Shown here: piece after piece, positions 1-64,000 of the stretch
Layout of the letters: each line of letters begins with the position of its first letter
Position numbering within the stretch: position 1 is the stretch's first letter
Virus record (IMG/VR): IMGVR_UViG_3300011723_000019
Coordinates: 2,000-65,999 of that record
Source: a virus
Taxonomy: Duplodnaviria; Caudoviricetes
DNA: 64,000 nt
Reading direction: 5' to 3' (one strand)
Made by a program: the position numbers and the translations under genes
Notes under the pieces: generated by a model
What the model was told of the DNA's origin: nothing
Database searches by the model: none
Seen by the model: the letters and a program-made list of their open reading frames with translations, nothing else

Positions 1-1
1 A

Positions 2-259
2 GATAAATATGAAAATAAAAGTGAAGTCATTGCCTATGATAGAGATAGCTATCAAAAAGCTCTTAATGATTATGCCGAGTACGAGTCAAATGCTTCCTCA
101 ATTTATGATGTAGTATTAGTATCAGCTGGCCCATTAGAGGCTTTAAAGAAAGCATATCCGAATTTATTTCTTGACCTCTCTGTTTTTATAGGGTTATTAA
201 CAAAAATGGTAGATGAAGGAGGATTATACTTAGATTTTGCTGAATTTGCAACTACTTAA
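2..259 (+). CDS. Partial (C-terminal 85 aa) RelA/SpoT-domain (small alarmone synthetase-like) protein
   Basis: Open frame from nt 2 to TAA 257-259, translated by hand; DVVLVSAGPLEALKKAYPNLFLD resembles the C-terminal motif of stand-alone RelA_SpoT proteins. The N-terminus is outside the window. Confidence 0.5.
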   Translation, partial: DKYENKSEVIAYDRDSYQKALNDYAEYESNASSIYDVVLVSAGPLEALKKAYPNLFLDLSVFIGLLTKMVDEGGLYLDFAEFATT

Positions 260-276
260 AAGCCTAGACTAACAAT

Positions 277-699
277 CTAGGCTTTTACTATTGGATCAAC
301 CCAATAAATCTTATGATCAGTCAAATTAAGCACATCCATTGGTGAAACGTGACATTCGATAATATCTTCTAATCCATCACCGAGAACATACTTCAGGGCT
401 TCTGCAGACTCGACAGATCCCTCCAATATAGTTCCTTCATCGAGCACATATAAATCAGATGTAATCATATTGACTTTGTTTTTAGTAATCCACTCCCTAA
501 GCTTATCTTTGGTCATTAGGACAACTCTTTCTCCAGCCTCCTTGGCTTCTCTTATCTCTTCATCTGCAACGTCTGGAAATTCTTTCCTTACAGTCGCTTC
601 GTATAAATCCCATTTTCCTGTGCGGATAGCTTCGTTTCTTAAATAAAGCTTTCGGCCGTACTCTCCGACTTCGTTAAAGTATTGTTGCAATGTTTTCAT
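277..699 (-). CDS. Hypothetical protein (140 aa)
   Basis: Clean ATG ORF, adjacent to the next minus-strand gene. Confidence 0.75.
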   Translation of the reverse strand: MKTLQQYFNEVGEYGRKLYLRNEAIRTGKWDLYEATVRKEFPDVADEEIREAKEAGERVVLMTKDKLREWITKNKVNMITSDLYVLDEGTILEGSVESAEALKYVLGDGLEDIIECHVSPMDVLNLTDHKIYWVDPIVKA

Positions 700-702
700 A
701 AT

Positions 703-972
703 CTAAAATTCTATAAATACGCTTCCAAATAGGTCCTCATCACGTATATTGTTCAATGCATCTTCAATAACTAAAATATTCGGTTCTTGGAATGGCACGG
801 CCGTGACACCTTCACAATCCAAAGCAACCAGCCAATCCATAACATTAGGTACCGCGATAGCCTTCCATGTGACATTACTGTTGTCTTCACAATCGGCTGG
901 GGCAATAAGGACATTGTACCCTTTGCTCTGAAGTTCTTTCAATACCGAATGACTAACCTTTGCAAATCGCAT
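703..972 (-). CDS. Hypothetical protein (MRFAKV..., 89 aa)
   Basis: ORF track starts at 1041, overlapping SRAP; the in-frame ATG at 972 avoids the overlap. Confidence 0.65.
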   Translation of the reverse strand: MRFAKVSHSVLKELQSKGYNVLIAPADCEDNSNVTWKAIAVPNVMDWLVALDCEGVTAVPFQEPNILVIEDALNNIRDEDLFGSVFIEF

Positions 973-1005
973 TTTATTTGTACTTTTAAGTAAATATAAG
1001 AAATT

Positions 1006-1692
1006 ATGTGTTACCATACTTCGACCCCGAGCACCAAGCAATTAGTAGACGCTTTACAAGGAAAAAACGTTCATTACCAAAATGAAGAGATATTCCATGT
1101 CAGCGGATTTACTCGGCCATACCTCCCTGTGACACTAAACGAGAGCCAAGACAGCATTGTTGCTGCACGATGGAAGCTTATCCCTTTTTGGGTAAAAACT
1201 GAAGATGATGCAGCCAAATACGCTAACACATTGAACGCCGAATCAGAATCTATTTTTGAAAAGGCTTCATATAAAAACTACATCGGCAAAACCCGTGGTC
1301 TACTCTACGTCAATGGCTTTTACGAACCTCATAAAGTTGCTGGTCAAAAAGAAACTGAAAACTATTACATATACACACCAACAAAGGAAATTTTCACTAT
1401 CGGTGTTGTATATTCAAATTTCAAAGATTACGAGACTAACAATGTCTATCCGACCTTTTCAGTTATCACGACAGCTGCCAATCCCTTACTCGAGGAGATC
1501 CATAATGAGAAAAAGAGAATGCCATTAATCATACCTCCCGATCGTCGCGATGCCTGGCTAAACGCTAGCACCAAGGAAGACGTTCAGCAACTAATGATTC
1601 CTTATGAAGGTGAGCTTGGAGCGCATAAAGTTTTCCGTGTAACCGGAGCCAAAGGTGACACCAACCGTCCAGACATTCAGGACGCTATTTAA
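1006..1692 (+). CDS. SOS response-associated peptidase (SRAP/HMCES/YedK family, abasic-site protection)
   Basis: N-terminal M-C (catalytic Cys2), NAESE, GFYEP and IHNEKKRMPLII motifs. Confidence 0.92.
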   Translation: MCYHTSTPSTKQLVDALQGKNVHYQNEEIFHVSGFTRPYLPVTLNESQDSIVAARWKLIPFWVKTEDDAAKYANTLNAESESIFEKASYKNYIGKTRGLLYVNGFYEPHKVAGQKETENYYIYTPTKEIFTIGVVYSNFKDYETNNVYPTFSVITTAANPLLEEIHNEKKRMPLIIPPDRRDAWLNASTKEDVQQLMIPYEGELGAHKVFRVTGAKGDTNRPDIQDAI

Positions 1693-1873
1693 GCTTTTTT
1701 ATTCTCTCCTTCACAACCCATTTTATAGCGGCTTCAAGTTCGTCAGGCCACTGCTTTAATCCTTCTTCAAGTATCTTTGCACCAGTCTCAATTCCAACAT
1801 TTTGAGCCGCCAGTAACGCCGACTCCCTTACGTGATTTACATATCCTTCAGGTGGTTGTTTGCTTATTTCCAT
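1685..1873 (-). CDS. Small hypothetical protein (62 aa)
   Basis: ATG ORF divergent from 1931 and convergent with SRAP. Confidence 0.6.
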   Translation of the reverse strand: MEISKQPPEGYVNHVRESALLAAQNVGIETGAKILEEGLKQWPDELEAAIKWVVKERIKKLK

Positions 1874-1903
1874 AATTCAAATTTAAAATTATTCTTGACA
1901 AAA

Positions 1904-1920
1904 TACTAAAAATGTTAGTA
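1904..1920. promoter_or_regulatory. Palindromic operator TACTAA-N5-TTAGTA (candidate SOS/LexA-type box)
   Basis: Perfect 6-bp arms in the 57-bp gap between divergent genes 1873(-) and 1931(+). Confidence 0.55.
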
Positions 1921-1930
1921 ATTTTACATC

Positions 1931-2398
1931 ATGAAACCTCTTGAAGTCTATTGCCGAAATCGCGTAATTTACGTCCAAATGACTGTGCATGATAAAAGCA
2001 TGGGCATGAAAGATTATCATCTTTACAACAAAAATGGTCTTGCTTTTTATGTTTTCAGGAAGTCTCAAGGGTTTTGGGAACTAGCATACGGTGAACTTGC
2101 CGACGATATAAAGGAAGCTTGTATCGACGCTCTTATACTTCGCTTTGATACTGATGTGCCTGAGCTATTCTATCACCAAGGCAAGCGCCAGATTGTGGAA
2201 GTTAGAGCGAAGAAATATAGCCTTTGGCATATCTACCTAAACAACTCCTATGTTGGCAGCATCGATTATGATAAGTATTCAAAGGCTTTTGATTATCATA
2301 TTGAAGATAACAGCTTATTAACCGACGACCACGTTCAAAAGTACATTGGTATGATCCAACGTGGCGAATTAAAGTGGATAAAGGATGATATTCGATAA
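1931..2398 (+). CDS. Hypothetical protein (155 aa)
   Basis: ATG ORF; C-terminal domain resembles the next gene. Confidence 0.8.
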   Translation: MKPLEVYCRNRVIYVQMTVHDKSMGMKDYHLYNKNGLAFYVFRKSQGFWELAYGELADDIKEACIDALILRFDTDVPELFYHQGKRQIVEVRAKKYSLWHIYLNNSYVGSIDYDKYSKAFDYHIEDNSLLTDDHVQKYIGMIQRGELKWIKDDIR

Positions 2399-2609
2399 CT
2401 TTGAAGTCGATGGTGAGCCACAGGTTTTGGAGATTACCTCACTCATGGGCGGCTATTTTCATGTGTACATCAATAGATACTTTATAACAAGTATTTCTTA
2501 CACCACCGAAGGCTGGCGCGTTCATTTCAACAACAATTCATGGTTATCCCGGGATGAAGCGGATATAATGATTGAGATGATCGAATCAGGGGAAATTCCT
2601 ACGTTATAA
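2385..2609 (+). CDS. Hypothetical protein (74 aa), paralogous to the C-terminal half of 1931..2398
   Basis: HVYINRYFITSISY...NNSWLSRDEADIMIEMIESGE aligns with HIYLNNSYVGSIDY...DNSLLTDDHVQKYIGMIQRGE. Confidence 0.7.
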   Translation: MIFDNFEVDGEPQVLEITSLMGGYFHVYINRYFITSISYTTEGWRVHFNNNSWLSRDEADIMIEMIESGEIPTL

Positions 2610-3031
2610 AAAAAGGCTGATCTCACGACCAGCCATAACTAAATTATAATTAAATCCGTACTGGACCGGGATATACATTGAAAAATGGCCAGGCCTTAAA
2701 CCTGACCATACAAATAAATCAACCAACTGAACTGATAGACTTTGATGGATCGTCAATCAGTGGACAAAAGCAAAATACTCTTGGTTTGATAAAAATTAAA
2801 AAAGCCTTGAGTGGGGAACCCAAGGCTTTAGCCATTATTAACCTATATTTTTGAAAAGTATCTATAGTACAAATCTAATTCCACTTTTGTTTAAAAAAAA
2901 GGCCGAGACTGAGAATCTCGACCTAGACATGTTTTATAGTTACCTATTATTGAGAATTTGTATAACAAGTAATATTTAGAATTGTTTTGCTAAATAAAAA
3001 AACCTTGAGTCTGGGAGGGATCTCAAGGTTT
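2608..3031 (-). ncRNA. Tandem array of five hairpin+U-tract units (candidate small RNAs or stacked terminators)
   Basis: Stems at 2615-2634, 2685-2709, 2801-2829, 2900-2924 and 3000-3031, each preceded on + by an A-run; all mismatches are G-U pairs on the minus strand; TAGATTTG promoter element at 2877-2870. Confidence 0.5.
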
Positions 3032-3136
3032 GTTAAATACTACCTACTTAGAAAAGTACATATAATACAATATCGAATAACGTTTGGTTTTAATAAAATA
3101 AAAAAAGGCCGAGTTACAAAATCCTTCTTAACTTCC

Positions 3137-3436
3137 TCATTTTTTATAACTCTTTTGATCCCAAGCAATATATTGCACCAATGACTGTGATGCAGCCACT
3201 GCAGCTAAGTCTGTTACTAACAATAGACATTTAGCATTCGGTATATCCTGATGGAAATGAACGATTCCCTCACGCATCCATCTGTCAACGTTTGTTCTTC
3301 CGTATAGTTTATATGCTTTACTTTTGGCTATATAGCCAGGAACAATATTCGCTTGTACTAGCGCCTCTTGAGCACCTAATTTTGCAGCATCCTTAAGCAT
3401 CGCCGCTAGTTTATAATCTAATTGCATATCAAACAT
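3137..3436 (-). CDS. Excisionase-like DNA-binding protein
   Basis: KSKAYKLYGRTNVDRWMREG winged-HTH-like segment typical of Bacteroidota Xis-like genes. Confidence 0.6.
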   Translation of the reverse strand: MFDMQLDYKLAAMLKDAAKLGAQEALVQANIVPGYIAKSKAYKLYGRTNVDRWMREGIVHFHQDIPNAKCLLLVTDLAAVAASQSLVQYIAWDQKSYKK

Positions 3437-3928
3437 TATTTTTTCAAAGATAATGGGAATTCAACACTCATTTTAATAACGCTTTTGCTATGGAGCGTTA
3501 TGTGAGACAATAAATTCCTCCATACTTACCGCAGGGTATAGATGGGGGAATTTTGAGTCTATGCGGAACATATCTTTGTTATGTTGATTAAATAATAACA
3601 CAAAATACTTAACACACTCAAAGATGCCAAATAAAGCAATAAGACAAAAAAACAACGAATTATTTCATCTTCTTGGTGTTTTATATTTAGAAGTAATACA
3701 AGGCAAAGCAGACCAAGAAGAAGCTAAGAAAAGACTAAAATATATCGATAAAAAACTGGCTAAAATTAAAAGTAAGCTTAGTAATACCAAATATTTATAA
3801 CATTGATAATACTCTGCTGGAAAGTCCACGTTGTCCACAGAACGAATGACAACCACGACTATTTTCCTTCACCAACCCTTCAAGGTACTTTTGTCTTGTT
3901 GATTAAGTAATATTAAACGATAATAGAA

Positions 3929-4505: not shown

Positions 4506-7109
4506 ATGCAGAACGGTAATGTAGAACATACACAAAAAAGCATTACATACACACAAAACAACCTTGACAATAACAATATTTCTCTATCAGATATTTGGCC
4601 CCAAATAAAACTTTTGTTGGCCGATGGTATATCTTTAATTCCCGTTCGAGATAAAGATCACGGGGATAAAAAAGCTAAATCGCCGTGTATGGTTTCTTGG
4701 AAGCCCCAACAGACCGAACGCATGACCGAAGCTGAGTTATGGGAAGCAATGAACCAATATGATACTACAGCTATCGGGGTTGTGTGTGGTGAAATATCAG
4801 GCCGTTTAGAGCTTATAGATATTGATAGCAAGTATAAGCCCGGTATAGAAGCCTTGCTATTAAAGGATTTTGAAAAATTGTATCCTGAGATATTTCCTAA
4901 ATTACGTATTCATGCTACACCTTCAGGAGGTAGGCATGTTATGTACAGAATCGAAGATCATGACGTTGAAGGAAATTTAAAGCTCGCTGGACGTTTTGCG
5001 ACCGATGATGAAGTAAAAGACCAAATAAAGGCCGGAAAGAAACGCCCAACCAAAACGGTGAACTTCTTGGAGACGCGTGGTGAAGGTGGTTATTTCTTAT
5101 ACCCTCCATCCCTTGGCTATTCTGTAGTTCAAGATGTGCCAATCCCAGTAATTACATGGGAAGAGCGTTGTGGTTTAATCAATTTATGTCGGACGTACAA
5201 CGAAGTGGTTAAAGTGGCTCCTACACCGCAGCCAACAAAATCCCAAAACGACTATTATACAACCAATCCATTTGAGGATTTCAATAACCAGTGTGATCCG
5301 GTGCAGCTCATGGAATCGCAAGGTTGGAAGTTCCTTCGTGAAAATGCACGCTTTATTTGGTTTACACGTCCGGGTAAAGAGGATGGTGTTTCTGCAAGCT
5401 GGAACCATGAGAGACGTGTTTTCTTTGTTTTTACTAGCTCTACTGACCTTGACAGCAATCGCGGATACAATCCGGCATCTCTGCTTGCTGAGTTTGGATT
5501 TTCAGGGGATAAGAAAAAAGCATATAAGTATCTTGTTGACAACGGATATGGTAAAATAAAACCTGCTGTCGAAAAAAAGATTATTGCCCAAGCTGTAAAT
5601 AAAAAGATCAATGGCCCAGCCAATCTTAGTGAAGGAGGTAAAAACGAAATCAATACAGGTATTCAGCAAAGTATTATTGCCCATCCTTTTGGTGAGTTTT
5701 GGAAAATAGATGACGGCATAAGCATCCATTTGAGCGATGTTATTTTTGTCCTCAAAGGGTTGGGATTTTGTGACCATTTAGGCAGACTATGCAAATTCAA
5801 TTTTGACACCCGTATTGTGTCTAATTGCGAAGATGAACTAAATAACCTGATTGATAGTCTACGTGATTATGTGAAAATTGAAGATGGTAACCTGCTGGAC
5901 GATATATTCAATGCTATCGAAGAAAAGCTAAGCACAAAAGTAAAGTATATTAGGAGCCGACTACCAAGGCTGGATATGAAATATATATTAGCTGACAAAG
6001 CAAGCGTAGCTTATAAATGCTACACTAATTGTATCCTGGCAATATCTGCCGATGGAGTCAAACAGTTGGATTATGAATGGCTAAAAGGTCAGGATCTATT
6101 TGTTTTTGATTCTCAGATACAGCAGCGAGAATATTATTTCGATCAACCCAGTTCCGACCTTTATAAAACTTATCTAACCAACGCCACTAGGTACACAGAC
6201 CATGTGAAAAATTGCTTGGGCTACCTTGCCCACAAGAAAAAAGTAAAGGATAGAGCCTACCTTATAATATTGACGGAGGAAGTACCCAATATTAAAGACG
6301 GCGGAGGATCCGGAAAGAATGTATTTACAGGGTCTCTTAGCTGGACTACAACCGTGCATGAGGTTGATGGGGCTATAGTAAAAACTGACGAAAAGATGCT
6401 GCAGTCTTGGAACGGCCAAAATATTTTCGTTATGTCAGATCTTCGAAAGAATTTTTACTGGCCAATGCTTAAGAACCCTGTTTCTGATAACATGACTATC
6501 AAAAAGCTATACAAGGACGAAAGCAGTATACCATTCGAATTATCACCAAAGTTTGTTGCGTCTACTAATTTTTCTTATGATATATCCGACGGAGGGCTTA
6601 AGCGTAGAGCAAGGCCTATAGAGTTTACACCTTTTTACACAAAAAACGGCGGTGTCAAAAAAGTACACGGGAAAATGTTTCCTGACGATTTTACCGCAGA
6701 GGATTGGATGAGCTATGATGAAGTGATAATTGAATGTATCCAATATCATTTACAACAAGATGGACAGATCGACGAAGTTGTGTTGTCAGAAGGTGGGCAG
6801 TACAAACAATTAGTGTTAAAATATGGTGAGGACTTATTTGAGAGAATCAGTGACTTTACTGATGAACTAATCGACGATCGTCCGATGGGTTTCGTTAAAA
6901 ATCTAAAAGATGAGATAGCATCATACCTTGATCAGTTCCAAAATCGGTTCCAAAAAATTTCATCTTTTTCAATTTACGAACTCATTTCCTATTTCGCAGA
7001 GAAAAAAGGATTTGAATTTTCCTACAATAAACGCAAAGGGATGAACAATCAAAAAAATGAAAAAAATTGGATATATGAGTTTATAGAGCAAGATTTTTTG
7101 GAACCTTAA
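4506..7109 (+). CDS. Bifunctional primase-polymerase (Prim-Pol) fused to a P-loop helicase-like domain
   Basis: GVVCGEISGRLELIDID, TPSGGRHVMYR and ETRGEGGYFLYPPS Prim-Pol motifs; GGSGKN Walker A. Confidence 0.88.
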   Translation: MQNGNVEHTQKSITYTQNNLDNNNISLSDIWPQIKLLLADGISLIPVRDKDHGDKKAKSPCMVSWKPQQTERMTEAELWEAMNQYDTTAIGVVCGEISGRLELIDIDSKYKPGIEALLLKDFEKLYPEIFPKLRIHATPSGGRHVMYRIEDHDVEGNLKLAGRFATDDEVKDQIKAGKKRPTKTVNFLETRGEGGYFLYPPSLGYSVVQDVPIPVITWEERCGLINLCRTYNEVVKVAPTPQPTKSQNDYYTTNPFEDFNNQCDPVQLMESQGWKFLRENARFIWFTRPGKEDGVSASWNHERRVFFVFTSSTDLDSNRGYNPASLLAEFGFSGDKKKAYKYLVDNGYGKIKPAVEKKIIAQAVNKKINGPANLSEGGKNEINTGIQQSIIAHPFGEFWKIDDGISIHLSDVIFVLKGLGFCDHLGRLCKFNFDTRIVSNCEDELNNLIDSLRDYVKIEDGNLLDDIFNAIEEKLSTKVKYIRSRLPRLDMKYILADKASVAYKCYTNCILAISADGVKQLDYEWLKGQDLFVFDSQIQQREYYFDQPSSDLYKTYLTNATRYTDHVKNCLGYLAHKKKVKDRAYLIILTEEVPNIKDGGGSGKNVFTGSLSWTTTVHEVDGAIVKTDEKMLQSWNGQNIFVMSDLRKNFYWPMLKNPVSDNMTIKKLYKDESSIPFELSPKFVASTNFSYDISDGGLKRRARPIEFTPFYTKNGGVKKVHGKMFPDDFTAEDWMSYDEVIIECIQYHLQQDGQIDEVVLSEGGQYKQLVLKYGEDLFERISDFTDELIDDRPMGFVKNLKDEIASYLDQFQNRFQKISSFSIYELISYFAEKKGFEFSYNKRKGMNNQKNEKNWIYEFIEQDFLEP

Positions 7110-7346
7110 GCTTCTTTTGGAACAATTTGGTTTTTTTTTGGAACCTAAAAACAGCCTTTAAATATGTTTAAAGCAATATTTTTAGGATGGTTCCAAAAAA
7201 CCAAAGTATTTTCTTTAAAACTCAACAGAAAATAAAAAAAGAATGATGATTAAAATATACGCTAAAAACAGTGGGGTTAAAAACAAAATGATTTTTATTT
7301 CCTGTATAAAAAAAGTTTTAGGCGTTTTTTATAGATTTTTTGGAAC
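7098..7346. repeat. TTGGAAC iteron cluster with AT-rich core (candidate origin of element B)
   Basis: TTGGAAC at 7098, 7117, 7138 and 7340; GTTCCAA at 7190; core TTTAAATATGTTTAAAGCAATATTTT at 7157-7182; directly after the primase gene. Confidence 0.7.
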
Positions 7347-7354
7347 CAAGAAAA

Positions 7355-7726
7355 ATGACAGATAAACAAATGATCGAAATACTAAAAAAAAGACACCCTG
7401 ACGTCTATGCGAAAATAAAAGCGACAGATGTAGGGAGCATAAATAATACCCTTGTTGACCTAGCTTGGTTCTTCTCTGGTATGTATGAGCAGCGGACTAA
7501 TATATTTATTTGTGCCTGTTTATTGAAGTATTCTCCGAATACCATAGTAGACAATTCGAGGGTGACTCATGGCTTGGTTGGGGAAATGGCCCGTGTAAAA
7601 GGTGTTACTAAGGGAGCTATCAGCCAGAAAATAACTACAGCGGTATTTCAGTACCAGCATTATGCAGATATAGAAGAAAAAGCAAACAGAATATTGGATA
7701 AATTAAATAATGTGATTTATGAGTAG
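7355..7726 (+). CDS. Hypothetical protein with possible C-terminal HTH
   Basis: ATG 7355 is in frame with the track ORF; GEMARVKGVTKGAISQKI is HTH-like. Confidence 0.65.
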   Translation: MTDKQMIEILKKRHPDVYAKIKATDVGSINNTLVDLAWFFSGMYEQRTNIFICACLLKYSPNTIVDNSRVTHGLVGEMARVKGVTKGAISQKITTAVFQYQHYADIEEKANRILDKLNNVIYE

Positions 7727-29653: not shown

Positions 29654-32600
29654 ATGATAACTCAAGAAAGTATAGATAAAATATTAGATGCCACAAAAAT
29701 AGAAGATGTAATTGGCGAAGTAGTGAAATTGAAGAAGAAGGGATCTAATCTGCAGGGATGTTGTCCTTTTCATGATGAAAAAACAGCATCATTTGTAGTA
29801 AGTCCATCTAAACAGATGTACAAGTGCTTTGGCTGTGGTGCTGGAGGTAATGTGGTTACTTTCTTGATGGAGAAGGAGCGGATGGAGTTTCCGGATGCGA
29901 TACATAAACTTGCTGCCAAGTACTCAATGACGGTTGAGGAGACGATTTCTAATGAAGAAGATAAGGAGGTTAAGGAAAAACGTGCTACGATGATCGACCT
30001 TAACAGGTTTGTGCAGAAGTCGTGGACTAACAATATTCTAGGTTTACCGATCAACCATTGGTCGGTAAATTACCTTTTGGAAAATAGAAGGCTTTCAATG
30101 GATACAATAGTGGAGTGGCAGATCGGGTATTCTCCAGATGCCATGAAATCGATCACTCCACATGTGCTCAACAATGGTCAATATGCAATTGCTGAAGAAC
30201 TTGGTTTGGTGAAAAAGAATGATAATGGCAATGTTTATGACACTTTTATCAACAAAGTAATATTTCCTATTCATAGTGATCGGGGCGATATCATTGCTTT
30301 CTCCGGAAGAAAAAATGATGAGGAAAAGAGGGAGGGGCCGAAGTATATAAATTCTAAGACTTCATTACTCTATCGAAAAGAAGAGGTCCTATTTGGGCTT
30401 TGGTTTGCTAAGCAGGAGATCCGGAAAAAGAAAAGTGCAATATTGGTGGAGGGAAACGTAGATGTGATCATGATGCACCAGATGGGCATCCGCAATACAG
30501 TCGCTTCATGTGGTACCGCTTTAACCGAAAGTCACGCTCAAAAGCTTGCCCGGCATTGTCAAAGTGTGACGATATTTTTTGACGGAGATGATGCTGGACA
30601 TAAAGCGACTTTAAAGTCAATCGATATCTTGATATCTGCCGGCCTTCGTGTCAATGTTGCGCGTCCGGACAAAGAGGACGATCCGGACACATTGTGTAAA
30701 GTACTCGGCAGTGAATTGCTTCCAAAAGATGGTGAAATGCCTGCTAAAGGACTAGAAGGCCGTAAAAATCCGATCGATGAGTGGTTGGAAAATCACACTC
30801 AAGACGGGGTAATGTGGAAAGCTATGTACCTTTTGGATCATGCGAAGGACGATATCCATTTAAAAGATCAGGCGTTGGCTGATATCGCGATTATGATTTC
30901 ACTGGAGCAATCTGATTTTTTACGCGAGAGCTACATCGATAAGATTTCGAAAGCTAAGAAGATGAAGCTCGGTACGTTGACAAAACGTGTTGAGGGGCTA
31001 TTAGAAGAGAGAGCAATACTGGAGGAAAAGCAACAGCACCAGGAATCAATAATGCCTTCTTGGATCAATAAAGAAAAGTTCTATACGCTAGGTTTTGACT
31101 CCAAAAAAGATGGTGATCAGCATACTGGTATATACTTCCATACTGGGGAAAAGGGTCCAAAACAACTGACTAATTTTATAATCAAACCTTTGATCCACGT
31201 CTATTCTAAAGATGAAAATTCCAATAGGCGTTTGACAGAGGTCGACAACGGGATATCAAAGACTGTTCTTGAATTACCCTCCAAAGCATTTACTTCAGTC
31301 GACCAATTAGAAACGATATTGCTAAATGAGGGTAATTTTTTTATGAAGGATGGTTTTGCCAAATCACATTTGAATAAGCTTAAATCAGTTTTATTGAGAG
31401 AATATCCAAAATGCTTTGAGCTGAAAACACTAGGCTGGCAACCAGAAGGCTTTTGGTCATATTATAACCAAGTTTACTATAATAATACTTTACATGCATT
31501 TAATGAATATGGTTTTACTGATGTTGAAGGAACAAATTATCTATCGATGGCTGCGAGTTCCTTGTCAAAGGACGTTCGGGCTGAGGATGACATTTATAGA
31601 AATGACCGGTATCTGTCCTGGTCACCAGGACCTTTCACATTTTCAGAGTGGGCAGTGATCTTTGTAGGGGCCTATGGCCGTAATGCCTGGACTGGATTGA
31701 TGTTTGTATTCGTTACCATTTTCCGGGATATCGTATACGCTCTGAATTCCTCATGCCCTCATTTCTATGTGTACGGATCAGTTGGTTCGGGTAAGTCTGT
31801 ATTCGCTGAATCCATATCAAATCTATTTTTTAAAGAAATGCCTTTCTTTAATCTGAACCAAGGTACCGACTTTGCTTTCTTCTCGAGAATGGAACGTTTC
31901 CGTAACTGCCCTGTTGGCTTTAACGAATTTGATGAAAATGCGATCAAAGAGGAATGGTTCCGTGCGATTAAATCATCTTTTGACGGTGAAGGCCGTGAAA
32001 AAGGCTCGATGACAAAACGGAAAAAGACAGAAGTACAGGAAATCTATTGTACACTAATTCTTATAGGTCAATACCTATCGACCAAAGATGATGCTTCAGT
32101 TTTGTCAAGATCTATTCCGGAACAGATATCCTCAACCTACCGAACACAAGAACAGATTGATAACTTTAACCGATTGAAAGCTTGGGAGAAAAAGGGCTTG
32201 GGTGGAATTTTGGTTGAGCTTCTTCAGTATCGCCCTTTGATGGAAAGCAAGTATGCAGAGTTATACGCTAAAGAGTTCAAAAAACTGTCTCAGGCATTTG
32301 AAGCACAGGGTATTCGAGTGAAGAGCCGTATTCAAAATAACTTTTGTACGATGCTGACAATTCGGAAGCTACTCGATGGAATGATTGAATTTCCTTTTTC
32401 GTACGATGATTTTTTTGAACATGTAAAACGTTCAATAATGACGTTATCTCAGCGGATTACCGAATCTGATTCTCTAGCCGCATTCTGGAAAACAATGGAA
32501 TTCTTGCTAGAGCAAGATATGATCATCGACGGTTGGGATTTCAAGATCGATGTGAGGGACTCTGTGCCATTAATTATATCGCGTTCGGAAGTGGGCGAAG

Positions 32601-33220
32601 ATGGAAAAAACACTCGTGTGAAGACTTTTGAAGAGCCAAAAAAACTTTTGTATGTACGAATGACCAATATTCACCCATTGTATATGAATGCCACTCGGCA
32701 ACAGACAGGGAAAACAGGGCTAAACAGTGAAACTATTGCTACCTACATGAAAGAACAGGAGTCTTTTATCGGAACGATAAAAGGTGTTGTTTTCAAGATG
32801 AAGAATGGAAATTCTTCGACTTCCAGCGCATTTGTATTTGATTATGATATGATGAACCTGAATCTGGAACGTGAAGTTGCTCCAGTGGGAACTCAGCGTA
32901 CCATTATCGGATCGGTTAGGTATAAAGATGCTGCCGTTGTGGAGGCTTTGGGCGAGACTAAAGTATCCTGGACAATGGAAATTGATGAGTCATATGAAAA
33001 GGATGATTACAAAGTTGAAAAGATTATTCAAGTTTCTTGTTTCTCCAGAAAACTTGATGAGGTTCGCCGCCTGACTGTTGGTACACCGATAAAGGTTGAG
33101 GGACTATATACTGAGTATACAGCTGGAGATAAACGTCGAGGCAGCATGTTAGTAGAAAATATTGAATTTACTGAAGGTCCTTCAGTCCCTGTTCAGGATC
33201 AGGCCGAATTGTTCAATTAA
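29654..33220 (+). CDS. DnaG-type primase (CHC2 zinc finger + TOPRIM) fused to a P-loop helicase-like domain and a C-terminal SSB-like OB fold
   Basis: CCPFHDEKTASF..YKCFGCG; LVEGNVD, FDGDDAG, DPD; GSVGSGKS Walker A; ends QAELFN. Confidence 0.9.
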   Translation: MITQESIDKILDATKIEDVIGEVVKLKKKGSNLQGCCPFHDEKTASFVVSPSKQMYKCFGCGAGGNVVTFLMEKERMEFPDAIHKLAAKYSMTVEETISNEEDKEVKEKRATMIDLNRFVQKSWTNNILGLPINHWSVNYLLENRRLSMDTIVEWQIGYSPDAMKSITPHVLNNGQYAIAEELGLVKKNDNGNVYDTFINKVIFPIHSDRGDIIAFSGRKNDEEKREGPKYINSKTSLLYRKEEVLFGLWFAKQEIRKKKSAILVEGNVDVIMMHQMGIRNTVASCGTALTESHAQKLARHCQSVTIFFDGDDAGHKATLKSIDILISAGLRVNVARPDKEDDPDTLCKVLGSELLPKDGEMPAKGLEGRKNPIDEWLENHTQDGVMWKAMYLLDHAKDDIHLKDQALADIAIMISLEQSDFLRESYIDKISKAKKMKLGTLTKRVEGLLEERAILEEKQQHQESIMPSWINKEKFYTLGFDSKKDGDQHTGIYFHTGEKGPKQLTNFIIKPLIHVYSKDENSNRRLTEVDNGISKTVLELPSKAFTSVDQLETILLNEGNFFMKDGFAKSHLNKLKSVLLREYPKCFELKTLGWQPEGFWSYYNQVYYNNTLHAFNEYGFTDVEGTNYLSMAASSLSKDVRAEDDIYRNDRYLSWSPGPFTFSEWAVIFVGAYGRNAWTGLMFVFVTIFRDIVYALNSSCPHFYVYGSVGSGKSVFAESISNLFFKEMPFFNLNQGTDFAFFSRMERFRNCPVGFNEFDENAIKEEWFRAIKSSFDGEGREKGSMTKRKKTEVQEIYCTLILIGQYLSTKDDASVLSRSIPEQISSTYRTQEQIDNFNRLKAWEKKGLGGILVELLQYRPLMESKYAELYAKEFKKLSQAFEAQGIRVKSRIQNNFCTMLTIRKLLDGMIEFPFSYDDFFEHVKRSIMTLSQRITESDSLAAFWKTMEFLLEQDMIIDGWDFKIDVRDSVPLIISRSEVGEDGKNTRVKTFEEPKKLLYVRMTNIHPLYMNATRQQTGKTGLNSETIATYMKEQESFIGTIKGVVFKMKNGNSSTSSAFVFDYDMMNLNLEREVAPVGTQRTIIGSVRYKDAAVVEALGETKVSWTMEIDESYEKDDYKVEKIIQVSCFSRKLDEVRRLTVGTPIKVEGLYTEYTAGDKRRGSMLVENIEFTEGPSVPVQDQAELFN

Positions 33221-33448: not shown

Positions 33449-33634
33449 ATGACGATGGTATATAGAAAGCTATCAAAACGGCAAAAGAAGGACGTTATAG
33501 AGTTATTTTATACCGGAAGTTTTTTATTGAAAGAGTTAGCGCAAAAATACCAAGTCAGTGAAAGCAGCATTAGCTTGTTGATTACAGCTCATTTGAAAAG
33601 TAGAAAATTTACAACCAAAGAAAAAAATGATTGA
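33449..33634 (+). CDS. Small HTH protein
   Basis: LLKELAQKYQVSESSISLLI. Confidence 0.65.
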   Translation: MTMVYRKLSKRQKKDVIELFYTGSFLLKELAQKYQVSESSISLLITAHLKSRKFTTKEKND

Positions 33635-34094
33635 ACAATATTTAGCAAAGGCACCAAAACGCTTTCTTAGTTATGCTATGGGCCTTACCAAAGATATCGA
33701 TGATGCTAATGACATCATACAAGAAGCGATCATCTCAATATGGCGATCTCGCGATCGCACAAATGACCTATCCGACGGATATTTTAAATATGTCCTTAAG
33801 CAAAAGTTTGTGAGCCTGATCAGGAAACAAAAGAAAAATATGCAGCTGCTGTTGGATAGTGAGCCGATCAGCCATAATGATGCACTGACTAAGTTTTATC
33901 TCAAGGAGCTAGATCAGATAGTCGATACGGCAAACCCCTTGCACAGGGACGTGTTTCGGCTAAATATGGCCGGTTACAAATTCCGTGAGATTGCCGAGAT
34001 GTTGGATATCCCTGAAGGAACTGCTGTTGGATCGATGCGATATATTAGAATTAGAATTAAAACCAAATTACTTGAACATGGAAAAGTATCTTAA
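33627..34094 (+). CDS. ECF sigma-70-like factor
   Basis: Region 2 (LTKDIDDANDIIQEA) and region 4 (GYKFREIAEMLDIPEGTA). Confidence 0.8.
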   Translation: MIEQYLAKAPKRFLSYAMGLTKDIDDANDIIQEAIISIWRSRDRTNDLSDGYFKYVLKQKFVSLIRKQKKNMQLLLDSEPISHNDALTKFYLKELDQIVDTANPLHRDVFRLNMAGYKFREIAEMLDIPEGTAVGSMRYIRIRIKTKLLEHGKVS

Positions 34095-34976: not shown

Positions 34977-34982
34977 AGTAAG

Positions 34983-35009
34983 AAGCCAATCGACATGATT
35001 GGCTTTTTT
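34983..35009 (+). terminator. Terminator ending the early operon
   Basis: AAGCCAATC-GACAT-GATTGGCTT followed by a T-run. Confidence 0.8.
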
Positions 35010-35061: not shown

Positions 35062-35357
35062 GTTCCAATCGTTCCAATTAAAAAAGGTCACTAAGGGCCT
35101 ATTTTCCTAATAATTTCCAACTGTTCCAATTTTCTGATTATTTCCGGCCATTTTTTCCAAGGTGCGTTTCTCAGCTGTGGGGGCTGATTTTGTGAGTTAA
35201 TAAAGAAAAAAATAACAAACGTTTCAAATGCATGAAAAAGTGTTCCAATCGTTCCAATTGTTCCAAAAGTTTATTTAAATATATTTAAAGCTATATTTTA
35301 TTAAAAAAGTCCATTGGAACAGATTGGAACAGTAGGAACGCATTGGAACATTGGAAC
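35062..35357. repeat. GTTCCAA/TTGGAAC iteron cluster (candidate origin of prophage C)
   Basis: GTTCCAA at 35062, 35071, 35123, 35242, 35251 and 35260; TTGGAAC at 35314, 35324, 35343 and 35351; AT-rich core 35274-35299. Confidence 0.8.
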
Positions 35358-35409
35358 ACTTTCAACGGTTTTGATGTGATCTGAATGCAAAAGAGGATAT
35401 TTTTGCGCT

Positions 35410-35898
35410 ATGGTCGTAGACATACCAATTTTAGTAACCAAGGTTAACAAGCTATATCTTTCTTCCAAGTTTGATACTGATCCTTTCATTTTATCAAAGA
35501 AAAATATCTTCGGTATTTTCCTTTTGAATTCATTGTGTAAAAAAAAGAATCTACCGATCAACAATAATCGTATTGACCTGAGCAAATATGATCAGGAGCT
35601 AACGGTTCAGATAACGGAGCGTGCTTTTAAAAACAGTGGTTATTGTGTACCCAGTAAGACGCTTGTTGATTTCAATAATATGGTTAGGTTCATGTTCCTG
35701 GATGAGTTCCATTCGTACATGGATTTCCATATTACTTACAATCGGTCTCAGATCAGGCAGTGCATTATTGATTTTATGAAGAAGTGCAATTTGCATGAGG
35801 ATATCATCGGCATAAGGACATTGGAGAAAGATTACGAGCGATACCGGGATCGTCAAAATGAAATTTTAGGACAATTCTTCAAAAAATCAATTGCCTAA
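35410..35898 (+). CDS. Hypothetical protein (possible late regulator)
   Basis: ATG ORF between the iterons and the first late promoter. Confidence 0.65.
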   Translation: MVVDIPILVTKVNKLYLSSKFDTDPFILSKKNIFGIFLLNSLCKKKNLPINNNRIDLSKYDQELTVQITERAFKNSGYCVPSKTLVDFNNMVRFMFLDEFHSYMDFHITYNRSQIRQCIIDFMKKCNLHEDIIGIRTLEKDYERYRDRQNEILGQFFKKSIA

Positions 35899-40490: not shown

Positions 40491-41198
40491 ATGGCAATTT
40501 CCGTTATTCAAAGGTATTTAGAAAACTCGCATCGTAGCTATGAGGAAGGTCGTGTGTTGTTCGAAAAATTTGCCTCGAGCAAAGTTCTGATCTCATTTTT
40601 TCGAAGTGGATCATCGCCGCTTCATTTTAACCGGTTACTTGAGGAGCTGAAGAAGCTATCCCAGGAGGATCGCCCATCCGAAGTCGAGGTTGTTGCTGAT
40701 GTAGTAGAGAAATCGATCATTGCTCCATTGGAGTCTTTTGATATCCCTGCCAAAGCGGCTTTGAATGACGATTACTTTTTATTTCCCGAAAAGATCAAAG
40801 AAGTAGTCCGGAGAAAAAATATGCATTATCGACGTTCACAGCAATTGTTTATTGAAATTGGTTTTACGGATGATCCTGATAATAGGCTTGCAATGGCTGA
40901 AACATTGCTGAATGATCATGATCAGGTTAATGCTTGCTGGGCTGTTATTGACGAATACAAGCTGTCAGGTAAAATTTTAGTAGAGAAAGCGAAGTCTATT
41001 CAGGAGGAAATCAATGAATTACCGCTTGATAAATTGCTTGCTCACCTCAAGAATATTCCTCCCAATATCTCGAAGGATAAAAAGAAGCTTGAAACCTTTC
41101 CAGATGGCCACCAAAAAGCAAAGGTGCTTTCTCGCTTTCAGCTTAACCAAATTAAACTGGATCTGGTCAAAAAAAGATTGGAGGTTTTGAATGGCTAA
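40491..41198 (+). CDS. Hypothetical phage protein
   Basis: First gene of the packaging operon. Confidence 0.75.
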   Translation: MAISVIQRYLENSHRSYEEGRVLFEKFASSKVLISFFRSGSSPLHFNRLLEELKKLSQEDRPSEVEVVADVVEKSIIAPLESFDIPAKAALNDDYFLFPEKIKEVVRRKNMHYRRSQQLFIEIGFTDDPDNRLAMAETLLNDHDQVNACWAVIDEYKLSGKILVEKAKSIQEEINELPLDKLLAHLKNIPPNISKDKKKLETFPDGHQKAKVLSRFQLNQIKLDLVKKRLEVLNG

Positions 41199-41775
41199 AC
41201 CAATATCAATAGATTCCAATAAGGATGATATCCTGAGCTATCTTAAAGATCCCGAATCAAAAGAGTCCGATCTCACTGCAAAGCAAACCAAATTGCTTGA
41301 GTGGTATGTGGATGCTTATACACTATTCAGGAATTACAGCTCGATGACCGAAACGATAACCGTTCTCAAAAAACTAGGAAGCCTTCGTGATAATCCGATA
41401 TCCAATTCAACTGCTCGGCGATATATTAATGATGCGCTTGAAATTTTTGGATCGGTTGGTCGTATGAAGGCAGATGTGATCAACCATATTGTTATTGAGA
41501 CTCTCCTAGATGCCCGGATCATGGCCAAAAAGCAAAACAATGCGATGGCCTTAAAGGAAATTGCCAAAGAGCTGAGAGCTGCTGGAGTCAACGATGAAGC
41601 AGGCGCTTTGATAGCTGATCAGATCGAGCAACACCAAGTTATCATTTCAATTGATCAGACAGCTCAGCGTGCATTGCAAAAAATACACGCCGGGGGAGTG
41701 ATCGATCTTGGCGATATCTTGAATAGCATGTCTGAAGAAGCTCAGGTGATTGGGGAGGGAAATAACAATGGTTGA
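41191..41775 (+). CDS. Terminase small subunit (putative)
   Basis: Directly upstream of TerL; helical. Confidence 0.65.
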   Translation: MAKPISIDSNKDDILSYLKDPESKESDLTAKQTKLLEWYVDAYTLFRNYSSMTETITVLKKLGSLRDNPISNSTARRYINDALEIFGSVGRMKADVINHIVIETLLDARIMAKKQNNAMALKEIAKELRAAGVNDEAGALIADQIEQHQVIISIDQTAQRALQKIHAGGVIDLGDILNSMSEEAQVIGEGNNNG

Positions 41776-43282
41776 GATTTCGAAACCTAAACTCCAGGTA
41801 CGTCGTAATCTGGCACAAATCCTGATCCGGACTGCACCGCAAAAAATTAAGGTATTAGAAGGGGCGAGAGCTGTAGGTAAGTCGACAGTTTTAGCGGATG
41901 AGATGTCCGAAACAGCATGCGATATGCCCCGGTCAACAAATTTCCTTCAGGGCAGAACCTATCAGCAAATTTTGACCAGGACATTGCCGTCTACCATTCT
42001 TTCTCTGGAGACTTTGGGTTATAAGAATGGTATACACTTTACTATTGGACAAAAGCCTATCTGGAAGAAGTACAATCTTCCTTATGAACCACCTTTAGAT
42101 TGGGGGAAAACTATTGCCTGGTGGACCGGAGCTGTCTGGGTGATGTTGTCTCAAGATGTTTCTTCCAGAGGTATCAACACGTGTTCCGGTTTGGCTGATG
42201 AATACTGCGAGCTTGATCCAGTGAAATTCCAGGCAGAGACCTATGCCACTTTACGTGGAGGTAAGTCTCATTTCGAGCATAAGAAGCGGTGGCTGTCTCA
42301 AGTGTATGTCAGCTCTATTCCCAGAACTCAAGAGGGTAAGCACATATACACCTATGAGCAGGCAGCTATAACAAATCCGGACGAGGTATTTTATTTACGA
42401 GCTCCTACTCGGATAAATGCTGAGAATCTTCCTGACAATTATTTTAAGATGCAGCGTCGTATCATGTCCAAATATGAATACGATATCGAGATAGAGAATA
42501 TTCGGCCCAGGGCTGTTGGTGGGGGATTCTATCCGGCATTCAATGAAAGGAATCTTTGTTATGATTCTTTTGACAATGATTATCTGAGGGGGTTGGTAGA
42601 TGAGGGTGTCGGTTATGATCGCACTAAATTTGAAAAACTGGATTGCCGTGAGGTAACCGATATCATACCCAGCACACCACTGGATATCGCCCTGGACTAT
42701 GGAAAGTTCTGTTGTATAGTCACGGCTCAGGAGACATTCCTGAACGAATGCAATTTCCTTTCTTCGATTACTCCTGAGGAAGCTGGAGAAATGCTGGAGG
42801 TACTTGTGCAGCGCTGGTGCGATTACTATCAGCCACATCCCACTAAGCGCGTCTCGTATTGGTATGATCAGACGGCGATAGGTAAAGACGGCCGATCGCC
42901 TAAGACTTATGCCGATATCGTAGTTGAGGTGCTCATCAAGAATGGGTGGGATGTGGATCAGCAATATTATGGTGCAGCACCTGAGCACTCGGATAAGTAT
43001 AAGTTCTGGTCGATTGCCATGCGTAACGATCATCCATTGTTACCGATATTCAAATGGAACAGGACAAAGTGTAAGTATCTCATCGAATCGATCAACAACT
43101 CGGCAGCTAAGGAGGGTAAGTTTGGCCCGGAGAAAGTAAAGACCGATGAACGTAAGACTCATGTCGATCAACGATACACCACACACCAGGGCGATGCCAT
43201 GGATATGATTGGATATTTCAAATATTCACATCTTATTGAAAGTAGCCAGGGATTGTGGGTGCCATCGAGGTCTTCAAGTTAA
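41750..43282 (+). CDS. terL: Terminase large subunit (alternative start ATG 41768)
   Basis: GARAVGKS Walker A, GLADE Walker B, ALDYG nuclease motif. Confidence 0.88.
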   Translation: MGREITMVEISKPKLQVRRNLAQILIRTAPQKIKVLEGARAVGKSTVLADEMSETACDMPRSTNFLQGRTYQQILTRTLPSTILSLETLGYKNGIHFTIGQKPIWKKYNLPYEPPLDWGKTIAWWTGAVWVMLSQDVSSRGINTCSGLADEYCELDPVKFQAETYATLRGGKSHFEHKKRWLSQVYVSSIPRTQEGKHIYTYEQAAITNPDEVFYLRAPTRINAENLPDNYFKMQRRIMSKYEYDIEIENIRPRAVGGGFYPAFNERNLCYDSFDNDYLRGLVDEGVGYDRTKFEKLDCREVTDIIPSTPLDIALDYGKFCCIVTAQETFLNECNFLSSITPEEAGEMLEVLVQRWCDYYQPHPTKRVSYWYDQTAIGKDGRSPKTYADIVVEVLIKNGWDVDQQYYGAAPEHSDKYKFWSIAMRNDHPLLPIFKWNRTKCKYLIESINNSAAKEGKFGPEKVKTDERKTHVDQRYTTHQGDAMDMIGYFKYSHLIESSQGLWVPSRSSS

Positions 43283-62711: not shown

Positions 62712-62790
62712 GTTCCAAGTGTTCCAAAAGGGCAATTGCCATAAAAAAGCCCTTTTCATTATCGAAAAGGGCGATTGGAACAATTGGAAC
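62712..62790. repeat. GTTCCAA x2 / TTGGAAC x2 flanking a terminator hairpin
   Basis: GTTCCAA 62712 and 62721; GCCCTTTTC/GAAAAGGGC 62749-62772; TTGGAAC 62775 and 62784. Confidence 0.7.
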
Positions 62791-62800
62791 ATTTTTGCTG

Positions 62801-64000
62801 TTATTTTACGAGGTCGTCGAAGAACTGCATTGTTTTACTTTTTGAGTCGCTGGCCATCTTAACATAAATCATGGTTGTTTTTAGATCGGAGTGTCCTAAA
62901 ATTTCCATGAGATCGACAGGATTACCACCTAATAAAATGAACGTGGTCGCAAATGTATCCCTGCTGGAGTGAAATTTCATGTATTTGTCTATACCAGCTT
63001 TAGTCAGTGCTCTACGTAATGCTTTACCCAGCGAATAGGATTCAATCGTTGGAAATATAATTCCTCTCTTTTTACCGATCAGTTCCACAGCAATTTTTGG
63101 CAGGGTGAATTCAATGACTTTACCGTATTTACGAGTTTTGAACATACTTAACCGAAGAATATTGTTGTTTCGGATATGGAGCCGTGGATCAAGCTGCTCG
63201 ATATCTGATTTTCTAAGTCCGGTAAAGCAGGCCACAAGATATCGACGAAGTGCGGTATGCTCCAATTCAGTTAGAAGTTCGGTGCCATCTTCGATATAAA
63301 AATTATACAATTTGTTGATTTCATCTTTTGTCAGAACTTCCCGGATCCCATCCTGATATTTTAAAGTTTTCAATTTATCTGCAGGACTTTCCGGGATAAG
63401 TCCTTTTGATACGGCCATAGTCAGAAACTTCTTGATCACGCGCATATGGCCGGCTGTTGTATTGTGTGTGAAATTGTCCAGAAGCCAGCGCTGGTGAATC
63501 CGGAGTTCGTGATCATCGATCGTATTAAATTTCCAGTAAGATCCGGTGTCTTTAAAGTATTTTTCTATCCGGGCGATCACAGTCACGTAATGTTTATAGG
63601 TTCCGTGCTCGATCAGATGCTCGCGGAGCAATTGCCTGCCTTCGCCTTTTATAAATGCGACGATATCATCTTTTGATATTTTAAGCGATACCTCGCGCCT
63701 GATCAGCTCATGTGTAATGGCTCGATCAAGGGCATAATATCTAAAGACAAGTGCATCGACGCGCGATCGCTCATTTTGTATCCGGAAATTATTTTGGGTG
63801 CAAAGGGTGTCATCATCAAATCCGTCACGTGGGAGGAGTACTCCATTGTCGAACTTGTCAACTGGCCATGAAATCTTGAGTGGGATCATGTCGGCAACGC
63901 CGTCGATAGATACGTGTATGTGGACAGAACCTCTTGCAGGATTTTTTCCTTGTGTCCGCTGTCTTATTGAAACTTTTACTTTTTGGTTGGTGGTTCTCAT
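62801..64000 (-). CDS. int: Tyrosine recombinase (phage integrase)
   Basis: FTGLRKSD (R), MFKT (K), FHSSRDTF (H-x-x-R), ILGH, TMIY (Y). Confidence 0.95.
   Translation of the reverse strand: MRTTNQKVKVSIRQRTQGKNPARGSVHIHVSIDGVADMIPLKISWPVDKFDNGVLLPRDGFDDDTLCTQNNFRIQNERSRVDALVFRYYALDRAITHELIRREVSLKISKDDIVAFIKGEGRQLLREHLIEHGTYKHYVTVIARIEKYFKDTGSYWKFNTIDDHELRIHQRWLLDNFTHNTTAGHMRVIKKFLTMAVSKGLIPESPADKLKTLKYQDGIREVLTKDEINKLYNFYIEDGTELLTELEHTALRRYLVACFTGLRKSDIEQLDPRLHIRNNNILRLSMFKTRKYGKVIEFTLPKIAVELIGKKRGIIFPTIESYSLGKALRRALTKAGIDKYMKFHSSRDTFATTFILLGGNPVDLMEILGHSDLKTTMIYVKMASDSKSKTMQFFDDLVK

Follow-up and report, generated by a model that had tools for sequence, protein, structure and literature searches.

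Within a 64,000-nucleotide stretch of viral DNA (hereafter the window; bases 2000-65999 of the 66-kb record IMGVR_UViG_3300011723_000019, with a GC content of 38.8%), two adjoining elements, named B (1-21700) and C (21701-64000) for the comparison of their DNA, each carry a site in which copies of the heptamer TTGGAAC surround an AT-rich core. We propose that both sites are probably replication origins of a known kind, that of the Staphylococcus aureus pathogenicity islands and other phage-inducible chromosomal islands (SaPIs/PICIs), of phage P4 and of plasmid pRN1. An initial annotation of the window had called the sites origin-like, a view supported by the position of such arrays beside replication genes, the selective conservation of heptamers and core, an easily melted centre and a winged-helix domain in the initiator candidate of B.

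In the proposed mechanism, short iterons, consisting of TTGGAAC and its flanking bases and set in opposite orientation around the AT-rich centre, would be read by a winged-helix domain located on the C-terminal side of a self-loading primase-helicase. The latter would assemble on both sides of the centre, melt it and prime. The origin of B would start 11 bp before the stop codon of the Prim-Pol-helicase gene and run downstream, and that of C would come after the last genes of the early operon, separated by 2 kb from the DnaG-helicase gene upstream; a second iteron cluster of C, near int, may act like the crr locus of P4. The primase modules would represent interchangeable front ends with no part in origin recognition, and their unrelatedness would therefore be expected.

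Anatomy and conservation of the two sites

The window contains 27 copies of TTGGAAC, compared with 10.1 +/- 3.6 expected, a number reached in none of 100 shuffles. Five copies in B and ten in C had been described initially, with opposite polarity (TTGGAAC left and GTTCCAA right of the core in B, the reverse in C), and this description is correct: the copies of B within 7098-7346 start at 7098, 7117, 7138 (+), 7190 (-) and 7340 (+), and those of C within 35062-35357 at 35062, 35071, 35123, 35242, 35251, 35260 (-) and 35314, 35324, 35343, 35351 (+). A count of heptamer clusters over the whole window, which the initial annotation had proposed as a check, revealed additional copies that had been overlooked, namely two in B at 6935 and 6947 (-) and a third cluster at 62712-62790; a TAGGAAC variant is also present at 35334, in addition to the ten copies of C.

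In B, the left array (7098-7144, + strand) is made of three TTGGAAC spaced by 19 and 21 bp and begins within the end of the Prim-Pol gene. It is followed by the core TTTAAATATGTTTAAAGCAATATTTT (7157-7182), which harbours two TTTAAA motifs 10 bp apart, by an inverted iteron (7190-7196, - strand), by an AT-rich stretch (7197-7339) and by a last iteron (7340-7346, + strand) located 8 nt before the ATG at 7355 of the first downstream gene. According to the nearest-neighbour stability profile, the least stable 40-mer of B lies in the AT-rich stretch, starts at 7277 and falls in the 99th percentile of the window. Two B-type relatives, L125 and L124 (96% and 77% Prim-Pol identity, respectively), keep the inverted iteron as well as the last iteron at the same position. 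L125 retains all three copies of the left array and an identical core; L124 has two exact copies and a degenerate TTTGGAC, and of the core keeps only GTTTAAAG. The two heptamers in the 3' end of the Prim-Pol gene (6935-6953, - strand), 12 bp apart, are also conserved in L124 and L125; they encode QFQNRFQ, so their conservation could operate at the protein level and a role at the DNA level is uncertain. This peptide falls within the predicted winged-helix domain of the B initiator, which could reflect dual coding or coincidence.

In C, a terminator-like hairpin with a 13-bp stem and a T run (34980-35008, + strand) ends the early operon just before the site, and similar GC hairpins with T runs precede the arrays of the relatives L129, L130 and L131. 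The site itself consists of three outlying GTTCCAA (35062-35129, - strand), a left array of three GTTCCAA at 9-bp spacing (35242-35266, - strand), an AT-rich centre (35267-35313) containing the core TTTAAATATATTTAAAGCTATATTTT (35274-35299), and a right array of four TTGGAAC and the TAGGAAC variant at 8-10-bp spacing (35314-35357, + strand), whose end is 52 nt away from the ATG at 35410. No region of the window melts more easily than the centre of the C site: its 40-mer from 35268 ranks at the 99.97th percentile of instability, and its GC content (22%) is the lowest within 4 kb. No clear GC-skew inflection was observed at the C site at 100-bp resolution, and no other iteron-like repeat family was found in the early and replication region of C. 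Searching the literature for the heptamer yielded nothing but primer noise.

The iterons of the two sites differ in their spacing, which is about 20 bp in B (about two helical turns) and 8-10 bp in C (about one), and in their flanks. In three B-type elements, 19 of the 20 copies read T-TTGGAAC-Y (extended form TTTGGAACY), whereas all 14 copies of C in the window read TTGGAAC-R, 11 of them being preceded by A (extended form ATTGGAACR), that is, TTTGGAACC against ATTGGAACA; within the window, the difference in the following base is significant (Fisher p = 1.3e-4).

Both cores sit between heptamer arrays and, as had been noted initially, are identical at 24 of 26 positions. They are the only matches to the 26-mer in the window at up to three mismatches, where shuffles predict none, and they form the top-scoring DNA match between B and C (blastn-short E = 0.012). 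The score of the B core against the C core exceeds that of 2000 out of 2000 composition-preserving shuffles, while its scores against the cores of other C-type phages are not clearly above shuffles. The concern that the core might be common AT-rich intergenic DNA, alike by chance, does not hold, because a degenerate 26-mer, compared with 2.9 million viral contigs, hit just two of them, each closely related to phage C.

The C site is conserved selectively. In the alignment of C with L002 and L132, the 77 heptamer columns, including those of the outlying copies and of both arrays, and the 26 core columns are all invariant, compared with 180 of 271 columns elsewhere (91 vary; p = 1e-15), a pattern pointing to purifying selection on heptamers and core while the spacers drift. 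The arrangement of arrays, core and arrays is also kept at five more distant loci that match the helicase part of the C protein, L128-L131 at 45-55% identity and L103 at E 1e-69 over residues 504-1066. The heptamer varies there with the lineage (TTGGAAC, TTGGAGC or TAGGAAC), and the centre keeps a TATTTAAA-like element. In L103, the array still follows helicase and methylase genes, and the late-module proteins of C were not found at this locus. L132, a prophage in a Sphingobacterium metagenome-assembled genome (88% helicase identity), carries just upstream of the main site a second origin-like module (L132:12180-12800), in which variant repeats GCTCCAA/TTGGAGC surround a centre of their own, hence two iteron dialects in tandem.

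With regard to B, relatives of its initiator candidate at 36-47% identity mostly have other short repeats right after the stop codon, such as GTTTAAA at a 9-bp period, ATGTTC, or GTAACCG around an AT-rich centre. Lineage-specific repeats at one spot are the behaviour of iterons in a diverging initiator family. In L141 (G008:C1:891002-895171), which encodes a relative at 36% identity, GTAACCG/GGTTAC repeats flank an AT-rich stretch of ~100 bp right after the stop codon; this locus would represent a clean further case of the same putative origin layout with a different repeat.

Viral contigs were further searched for three closely spaced copies of GTTCCAA. Besides the two relatives of C, 22 loci, whose GC backgrounds vary widely, displayed arrays inverted on the two sides of a central region. 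Nine out of ten ORFs (open reading frames) adjoining inverted arrays, in nine otherwise unrelated viral contigs, code for replication proteins: Prim-Pols (some with a DnaG zinc ribbon or PriCT-2), helicases of the D5_N/DUF5906/Pox_D5 and VapE-like kinds, and a single Viral_Rep. Several arrays start within about 10-200 bp of the end of the replication gene, and that of L003 lies between a helicase gene and a primase gene. As judged from these contigs, the association with replication genes is not a product of the search pattern. A universal heptamer motif was rejected, since the more than 118 viral contigs with three GTTCCAA reflect that pattern and many of them, including giant-virus bins, are not origin-like. 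On a 2-kb contig, GTTCCAA arrays directly follow a Viral_Rep (HUH-type) gene (L043:1391-1587), and the heptamer therefore seems to function as iteron in a small replicon that encodes a Rep.

Initiator candidates and known origins of this kind

The initiator candidate of B (4506-7109, + strand; 867 residues) is composed of a Prim-Pol domain, a P-loop helicase region resembling superfamily 3 (SF3) and a C-terminal winged-helix domain. It matches Pfam Prim-Pol (E 1e-11), phrog_19930 (DNA polymerase/primase) and phrog_28855, and its Walker A motif GGGSGKN is nearly invariant among homologues. The AlphaFold2 (AF2) model of the C-terminal 128 residues (740-867; pLDDT 84) displays three helices and a beta-hairpin in a winged-helix fold. 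Its structural neighbours are mostly winged-helix domains, and VIA matches include the Nse1 winged helix (Z 8.4), the C-terminus of the NrS-1 prim-pol/helicase (5.8) and the P4 origin-binding domain 1ka8 (5.2).

The candidate of C (29654-33220, + strand; 1188 residues) combines a DnaG primase, a P-loop helicase, a helix-helix-hairpin module and an oligonucleotide-binding (OB) fold resembling the single-stranded DNA-binding protein SSB and PriB. Its primase part matches Pfam Zn_ribbon_DnaG, DNAG_N and Toprim, as well as PDB primases (E 1e-57), and relatives at 52-55% identity bear the source label 'DUF927 domain-containing'. In the AF2 model of the C-terminal part (residues 900-1188, window 32351-33217; pLDDT 92.5), the helix-helix-hairpin module occupies model residues 104-164 and the OB fold reaches VIA Z values up to 12; this modelled end supports the four-part replication protein described in a separate part of the initial annotation. 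Neither the B nor the C protein matched a Pfam helicase family at E <= 0.1 or a PDB sequence outside its primase part, and weak RNA_helicase/AAA hints for the P-loop helicase were seen only in the relative L103. Among homologues of the C protein (window 29654-33220, proteins P0121-P0240), the helicase core is joined to DnaG, to BT4734/PriCT-2 or to no N-terminal domain detected by Pfam, and in L127-L129 a gene of its own, located upstream, encodes DnaG. These architectures suggest that primase modules are shuffled on a constant helicase among C relatives.

Homology between the two candidates beyond the primase was rejected: BLASTP found nothing, and hhalign with 40-sequence profiles aligned only the Walker A/P-loop core, with a probability below 1%. 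The primases, Prim-Pol in B and DnaG in C, are indeed unrelated, as the initial annotation had pointed out. The contradiction it saw between this and a common signature is only apparent, because primase domains do not read origins, a task that would fall to the winged-helix domain C-terminal to the helicase.

The organisation of the B site matches that of the Rep-ori modules of SaPIs/PICIs (SaPI1, SaPIbov1, SaPI5 PriRep) point for point. In SaPI Reps, the C-terminal winged-helix domain of a self-loading helicase reads 5-6-nt iterons, which lie immediately downstream of rep in opposite directions on both sides of an AT-rich centre (PMC9371898). Iterons immediately downstream of the primase-helicase ORF are found in B, L124 and L125, and a C-terminal winged helix is indicated for the B protein by the AF2 model and its structural matches; the order of B-type elements, int - regulators/xis - pri-rep - ori - small genes, is also that of such islands. 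SaPI origins have at least two opposed iterons per side of the centre. In B, three (+) and one (-) surround the core and a further pair (one -, one +) surrounds 7197-7339, so that two per side are reached only when the in-gene copies or the copy at 7340 are counted. C has three on the - strand and five on the + strand around 35267-35313, but its array lies 2 kb downstream of the helicase gene, with four small ORFs between. B also differs from SaPIs in the length of its iterons (7-9 nt, not 5-6 nt), in a helicase region without detectable sequence relation to SaPI Rep, in a primase that is a Prim-Pol fused to the helicase, and in its tail genes (tape measure, distal tail, tail-tip), where SaPIs have capsid-size or terminase genes.

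In phage P4, octamer iterons (TGTTCACC) are found in either orientation at ori and at another locus, crr. The main site and remote second cluster of C recall this arrangement, but in C the two lie 27 kb apart on the prophage map, and the second cluster lacks an AT-rich centre and is putative in its role. In P4 alpha, a single polypeptide combines a primase of DnaG type, an SF3 helicase and a winged-helix domain that binds the origin (PMC2777425); the C protein shares the DnaG part with it, and the B C-terminus matches 1ka8 in structure; in contrast, the helicase part of C belongs to another family (DUF927-like by its source label) and the protein ends in an SSB/PriB-type OB fold. The helicase and winged-helix organisation is common to P4 alpha and to ORF904 of pRN1, despite their different primases, of DnaG and prim/pol type, respectively (PMC2777425). 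ORF904 has the same three-part organisation as the B protein (prim/pol - SF3 helicase - winged helix), with an origin region downstream of the gene (PMC2777425); pRN1 is, however, an archaeal plasmid whose iterons are not defined, with no detected sequence similarity past the Prim-Pol domain family. A satellite origin with iterons and an interaction with the helper at the level of replication is known from the PICI-like elements (PLEs) of Vibrio cholerae and their phage ICP1 (PMC7145576), but the PLE initiator is of RepA_N type without a helicase and borrows the replisome of the helper, and the PLE origin is unlike that of its helper.

As origins, the sites would define the replicons of two hitherto uncharacterised Sphingobacterium elements and would extend the logic of SaPI, P4 and pRN1 to Bacteroidota phages and to a satellite-like island carrying tail genes.

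Other possible functions of the sites

Several observations weigh against an origin function. The structural matches of the B winged helix are middling (Z 5-8), and the winged-helix module of the C protein is predicted from secondary structure only, because fold searches were dominated by the OB domain. The two initiator candidates would have to read the same heptamer without detectable homology outside the P-loop core. The ten ORFs counted above were drawn from contigs found by the heptamer search, so the heptamer shared by those contigs is a selection effect and no evidence of a universal motif. In C-type phages, the array is separated from the helicase gene by 2-4 kb and is in every case closely followed by the first late ORFs, a position that fits a late-promoter control region equally well. 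Furthermore, a gene for a sigma factor of the extracytoplasmic function (ECF) type (33627-34094, + strand; phrog_1740; Pfam Sigma70_r2 4e-7, Sigma70_r4_2, Sigma70_ECF) lies at the end of the early region, 1 kb upstream of the C site; the -35 boxes recognised by ECF sigma factors commonly contain GGAAC; and in both elements the core points the same way with respect to the + strand genes that follow it.

These last features lead to the strongest alternative, in which the heptamers would be binding sites of a phage activator or -35-like elements for the ECF sigma factor of C, and the core part of a late promoter; overall, we regard it as unlikely. The tail-gene operon of B would then be switched on together with the late genes of its helper, as P4 late promoters respond to P2 Ogr. 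Every C-type relative examined has its site, like C, between the terminator of the early operon and the first late ORF (35410 in C). Immediately upstream of this ORF in C, TTTG at 35370 and TATTTTTG at 35398 may form a Bacteroidota-type -33/-7 pair, and in B the last heptamer precedes a start codon by 8 nt. However, arrays that are inverted on both sides of a centre and spaced by helical turns do not have the geometry of a promoter. In an ECF promoter, a GGAAC -35 box would be followed about 16-17 nt further on by a conserved -10 element. In C, L002 and L128-L131, no conserved -10-like element was seen at a constant distance from the last heptamer, and heptamers are present on both strands. 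The third cluster is located between convergent gene ends, where no promoter is expected, and B has no recognisable sigma factor. In unrelated phages such arrays adjoin helicase or primase genes, and five such records, two of which are at least 90% complete, contain no sigma region-2 match above the family cut-off. The lineage-specific repeats found at the same place next to relatives of the B protein also speak against late control. Origin and late-promoter functions could nevertheless coexist.

A packaging-initiation site (pac or cos), which the initial annotation had also considered, found little support. The repeats would be sites for the terminase small subunit around a cleavage region, and B would copy the signal of its helper to enter C capsids. 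Satellites devoid of terminase genes, such as P4 and cos-type SaPIs, usually carry the packaging signal of their helper, repeats flank the cleavage regions of P1 pac and SPP1 pac, and no DNA match between B and C is better than the 26-mer. Yet the C site is about 6 kb upstream of the candidate terS/terL (41191-43282), with an S49 protease gene and several ORFs between, and in G003, a relative whose record is classed as 100% complete and linear, the array is found 26.5 kb into the 41.9 kb and not at an end. Arrays that track replication genes in unrelated phages, extended iterons and spacings that differ between B and C, and the loss of most of the core in the B-type L124 argue in the same direction, so that we consider a packaging function very improbable.

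The weakest explanation, and to our mind a barely credible one, is that a host DNA-binding protein recognises heptamers or core in both elements, which would then share only their dependence on the host: the two initiators are unrelated in sequence, and motifs of the TTTAAA type are met repeatedly, both in the centres of C-type origins and as the unit of the repeats in Prim-Pol phage relatives, in line with a host architectural protein or with easy melting, but host chromosomes have almost no closely paired heptamers outside C-type prophages, heptamer variants shift between phage lineages inside one bacterial family, and the flanking bases differ consistently between B-type and C-type copies. 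In five Sphingobacteriaceae genomes, closely paired heptamers numbered 0-1 in three and formed prophage-linked clusters in two; being nearly confined to C-type prophages, they are therefore probably read by a protein that the element encodes, contrary to the common host factor suggested initially. A DNA-binding protein encoded by both elements was rejected as well, since an all-against-all BLASTP of ORFs of at least 40 residues yielded only a weak tape-measure match between B and C.

Likeness of the two sites and the elements that bear them

The likeness of the B and C sites, with the same heptamer and a 24/26 core, is, on the sequence comparisons above, not due to chance. Unrelated initiators that share a heptamer and a nearly identical centre within one cell are unusual, while relatives of the B initiator use other repeats. 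The B core of the window is closer to the co-resident C lineage than to that of its relative L124; this specific match therefore points to exchange or convergence of origin DNA between elements sharing a cell, which is the most likely explanation. The diverged core of L124 gave marginal alignments with L103 and L130 (p about 0.002-0.006 before correction for 24 tests), and an exact search with it retrieved only unrelated phages, without heptamers.

Because B-type and C-type iterons differ in flanking bases and spacing, they point to separate specificities, and each of the two elements, which we favour reading as independent replicons, probably uses its own initiator; the pattern nevertheless leaves room for partial cross-recognition. 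The proposal of the initial annotation that the B origin mimics or cross-uses that of C is, in our opinion, possible but doubtful. More specifically, the origin of a B-type satellite might have evolved to track that of a co-resident C-type prophage, hence the same heptamer and a 24/26 centre here, an idea that we hold tentatively, with more against it than for it, and which rests on one pair, since no second independent B-type/C-type pair was found among the genomes and contigs searched. In such a case, the helper initiator might fire the satellite origin upon induction, or the satellite initiator might compete at the helper origin. Origin mimicry would be a way of sensing the helper or of interfering with it, and has to our knowledge not been described for P4, SaPIs or PLE; we know of no SaPI that shares iteron and centre with its helper. 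Cross-recognition would constitute a new route coupling the replication of a satellite to that of its helper, or interfering with the latter, whereas mere exchange of origin DNA would make B and C an ordinary pair of origins.

The third heptamer cluster of phage C (62712-62790) comprises two GTTCCAA (62712, 62721) and two TTGGAAC (62775, 62784), each pair being 9 bp apart. It encloses overlapping GC hairpins, AAAAGGGC / GCCCTTTT / AAAAGGGC, and is bordered by the last tail gene on one side and by the 3' end of int on the other. By analogy with P4 crr, it may be a second binding site of the initiator, or else a bidirectional terminator with flanking sites. The same arrangement is kept at the same relative place in four C-type proviruses (G001, G002, G004, G005) and, being intact in independent proviruses, is therefore not split by integration. 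Integrase arm sites or attP were rejected for the main sites, which are kilobases from any integrase gene, and so was a known RNA, as the only hits were sub-threshold microRNA-hairpin matches caused by the inverted repeats.

Phage C (~22-64 kb) is temperate. Its repressor and early genes are followed by the DnaG-helicase gene, the ECF-type sigma gene, the terminator and the site, then by a series of ORFs, among them an S49 protease gene, a gene for a candidate large terminase and other large ORFs, and at the end by a tyrosine integrase gene (62801-64000, - strand; Pfam Phage_integrase, Phage_int_SAM_5), at whose start codon the contig ends. A circular contig was rejected, since no terminal overlap was found, and so were tRNA-linked att sites, as the window contains no tRNA genes. 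Protein relatives indicate Sphingobacterium as the host genus, and C-type proviruses of 40-43 kb with the same layout occur without B.

The genes of B run from excisionase-like genes through the Prim-Pol-helicase gene and the site to small ORFs and to tape measure, distal-tail and tail-tip proteins, with no recognisable match to capsid, portal, terminase or other head genes. From this gene content, B appears to be a head-less, satellite-like element next to prophage C, and C may be its helper. B-type relatives above 44% identity were absent from 401 sampled genomes of the family and from the genome contigs searched with the patterns used. L124 displays the order int - HTH - xis - Prim-Pol - small ORFs - tape measure (HTH, helix-turn-helix), and L125 has an integrase, then defence-like cargo, upstream; because of these layouts, B can be regarded as a member of a conserved island family and not as a random remnant. 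In L125 (L125:161-9900), SocA_Panacea, HEPN_AbiU2 and SRAP genes follow the integrase, ahead of the xis genes, and an SRAP gene is also present at 1006-1692, in the left part of the window (1-3900). Because L125 has cargo at this place, the left part of the window is probably accessory or defence cargo of B, which would then reach past the start of the contig.

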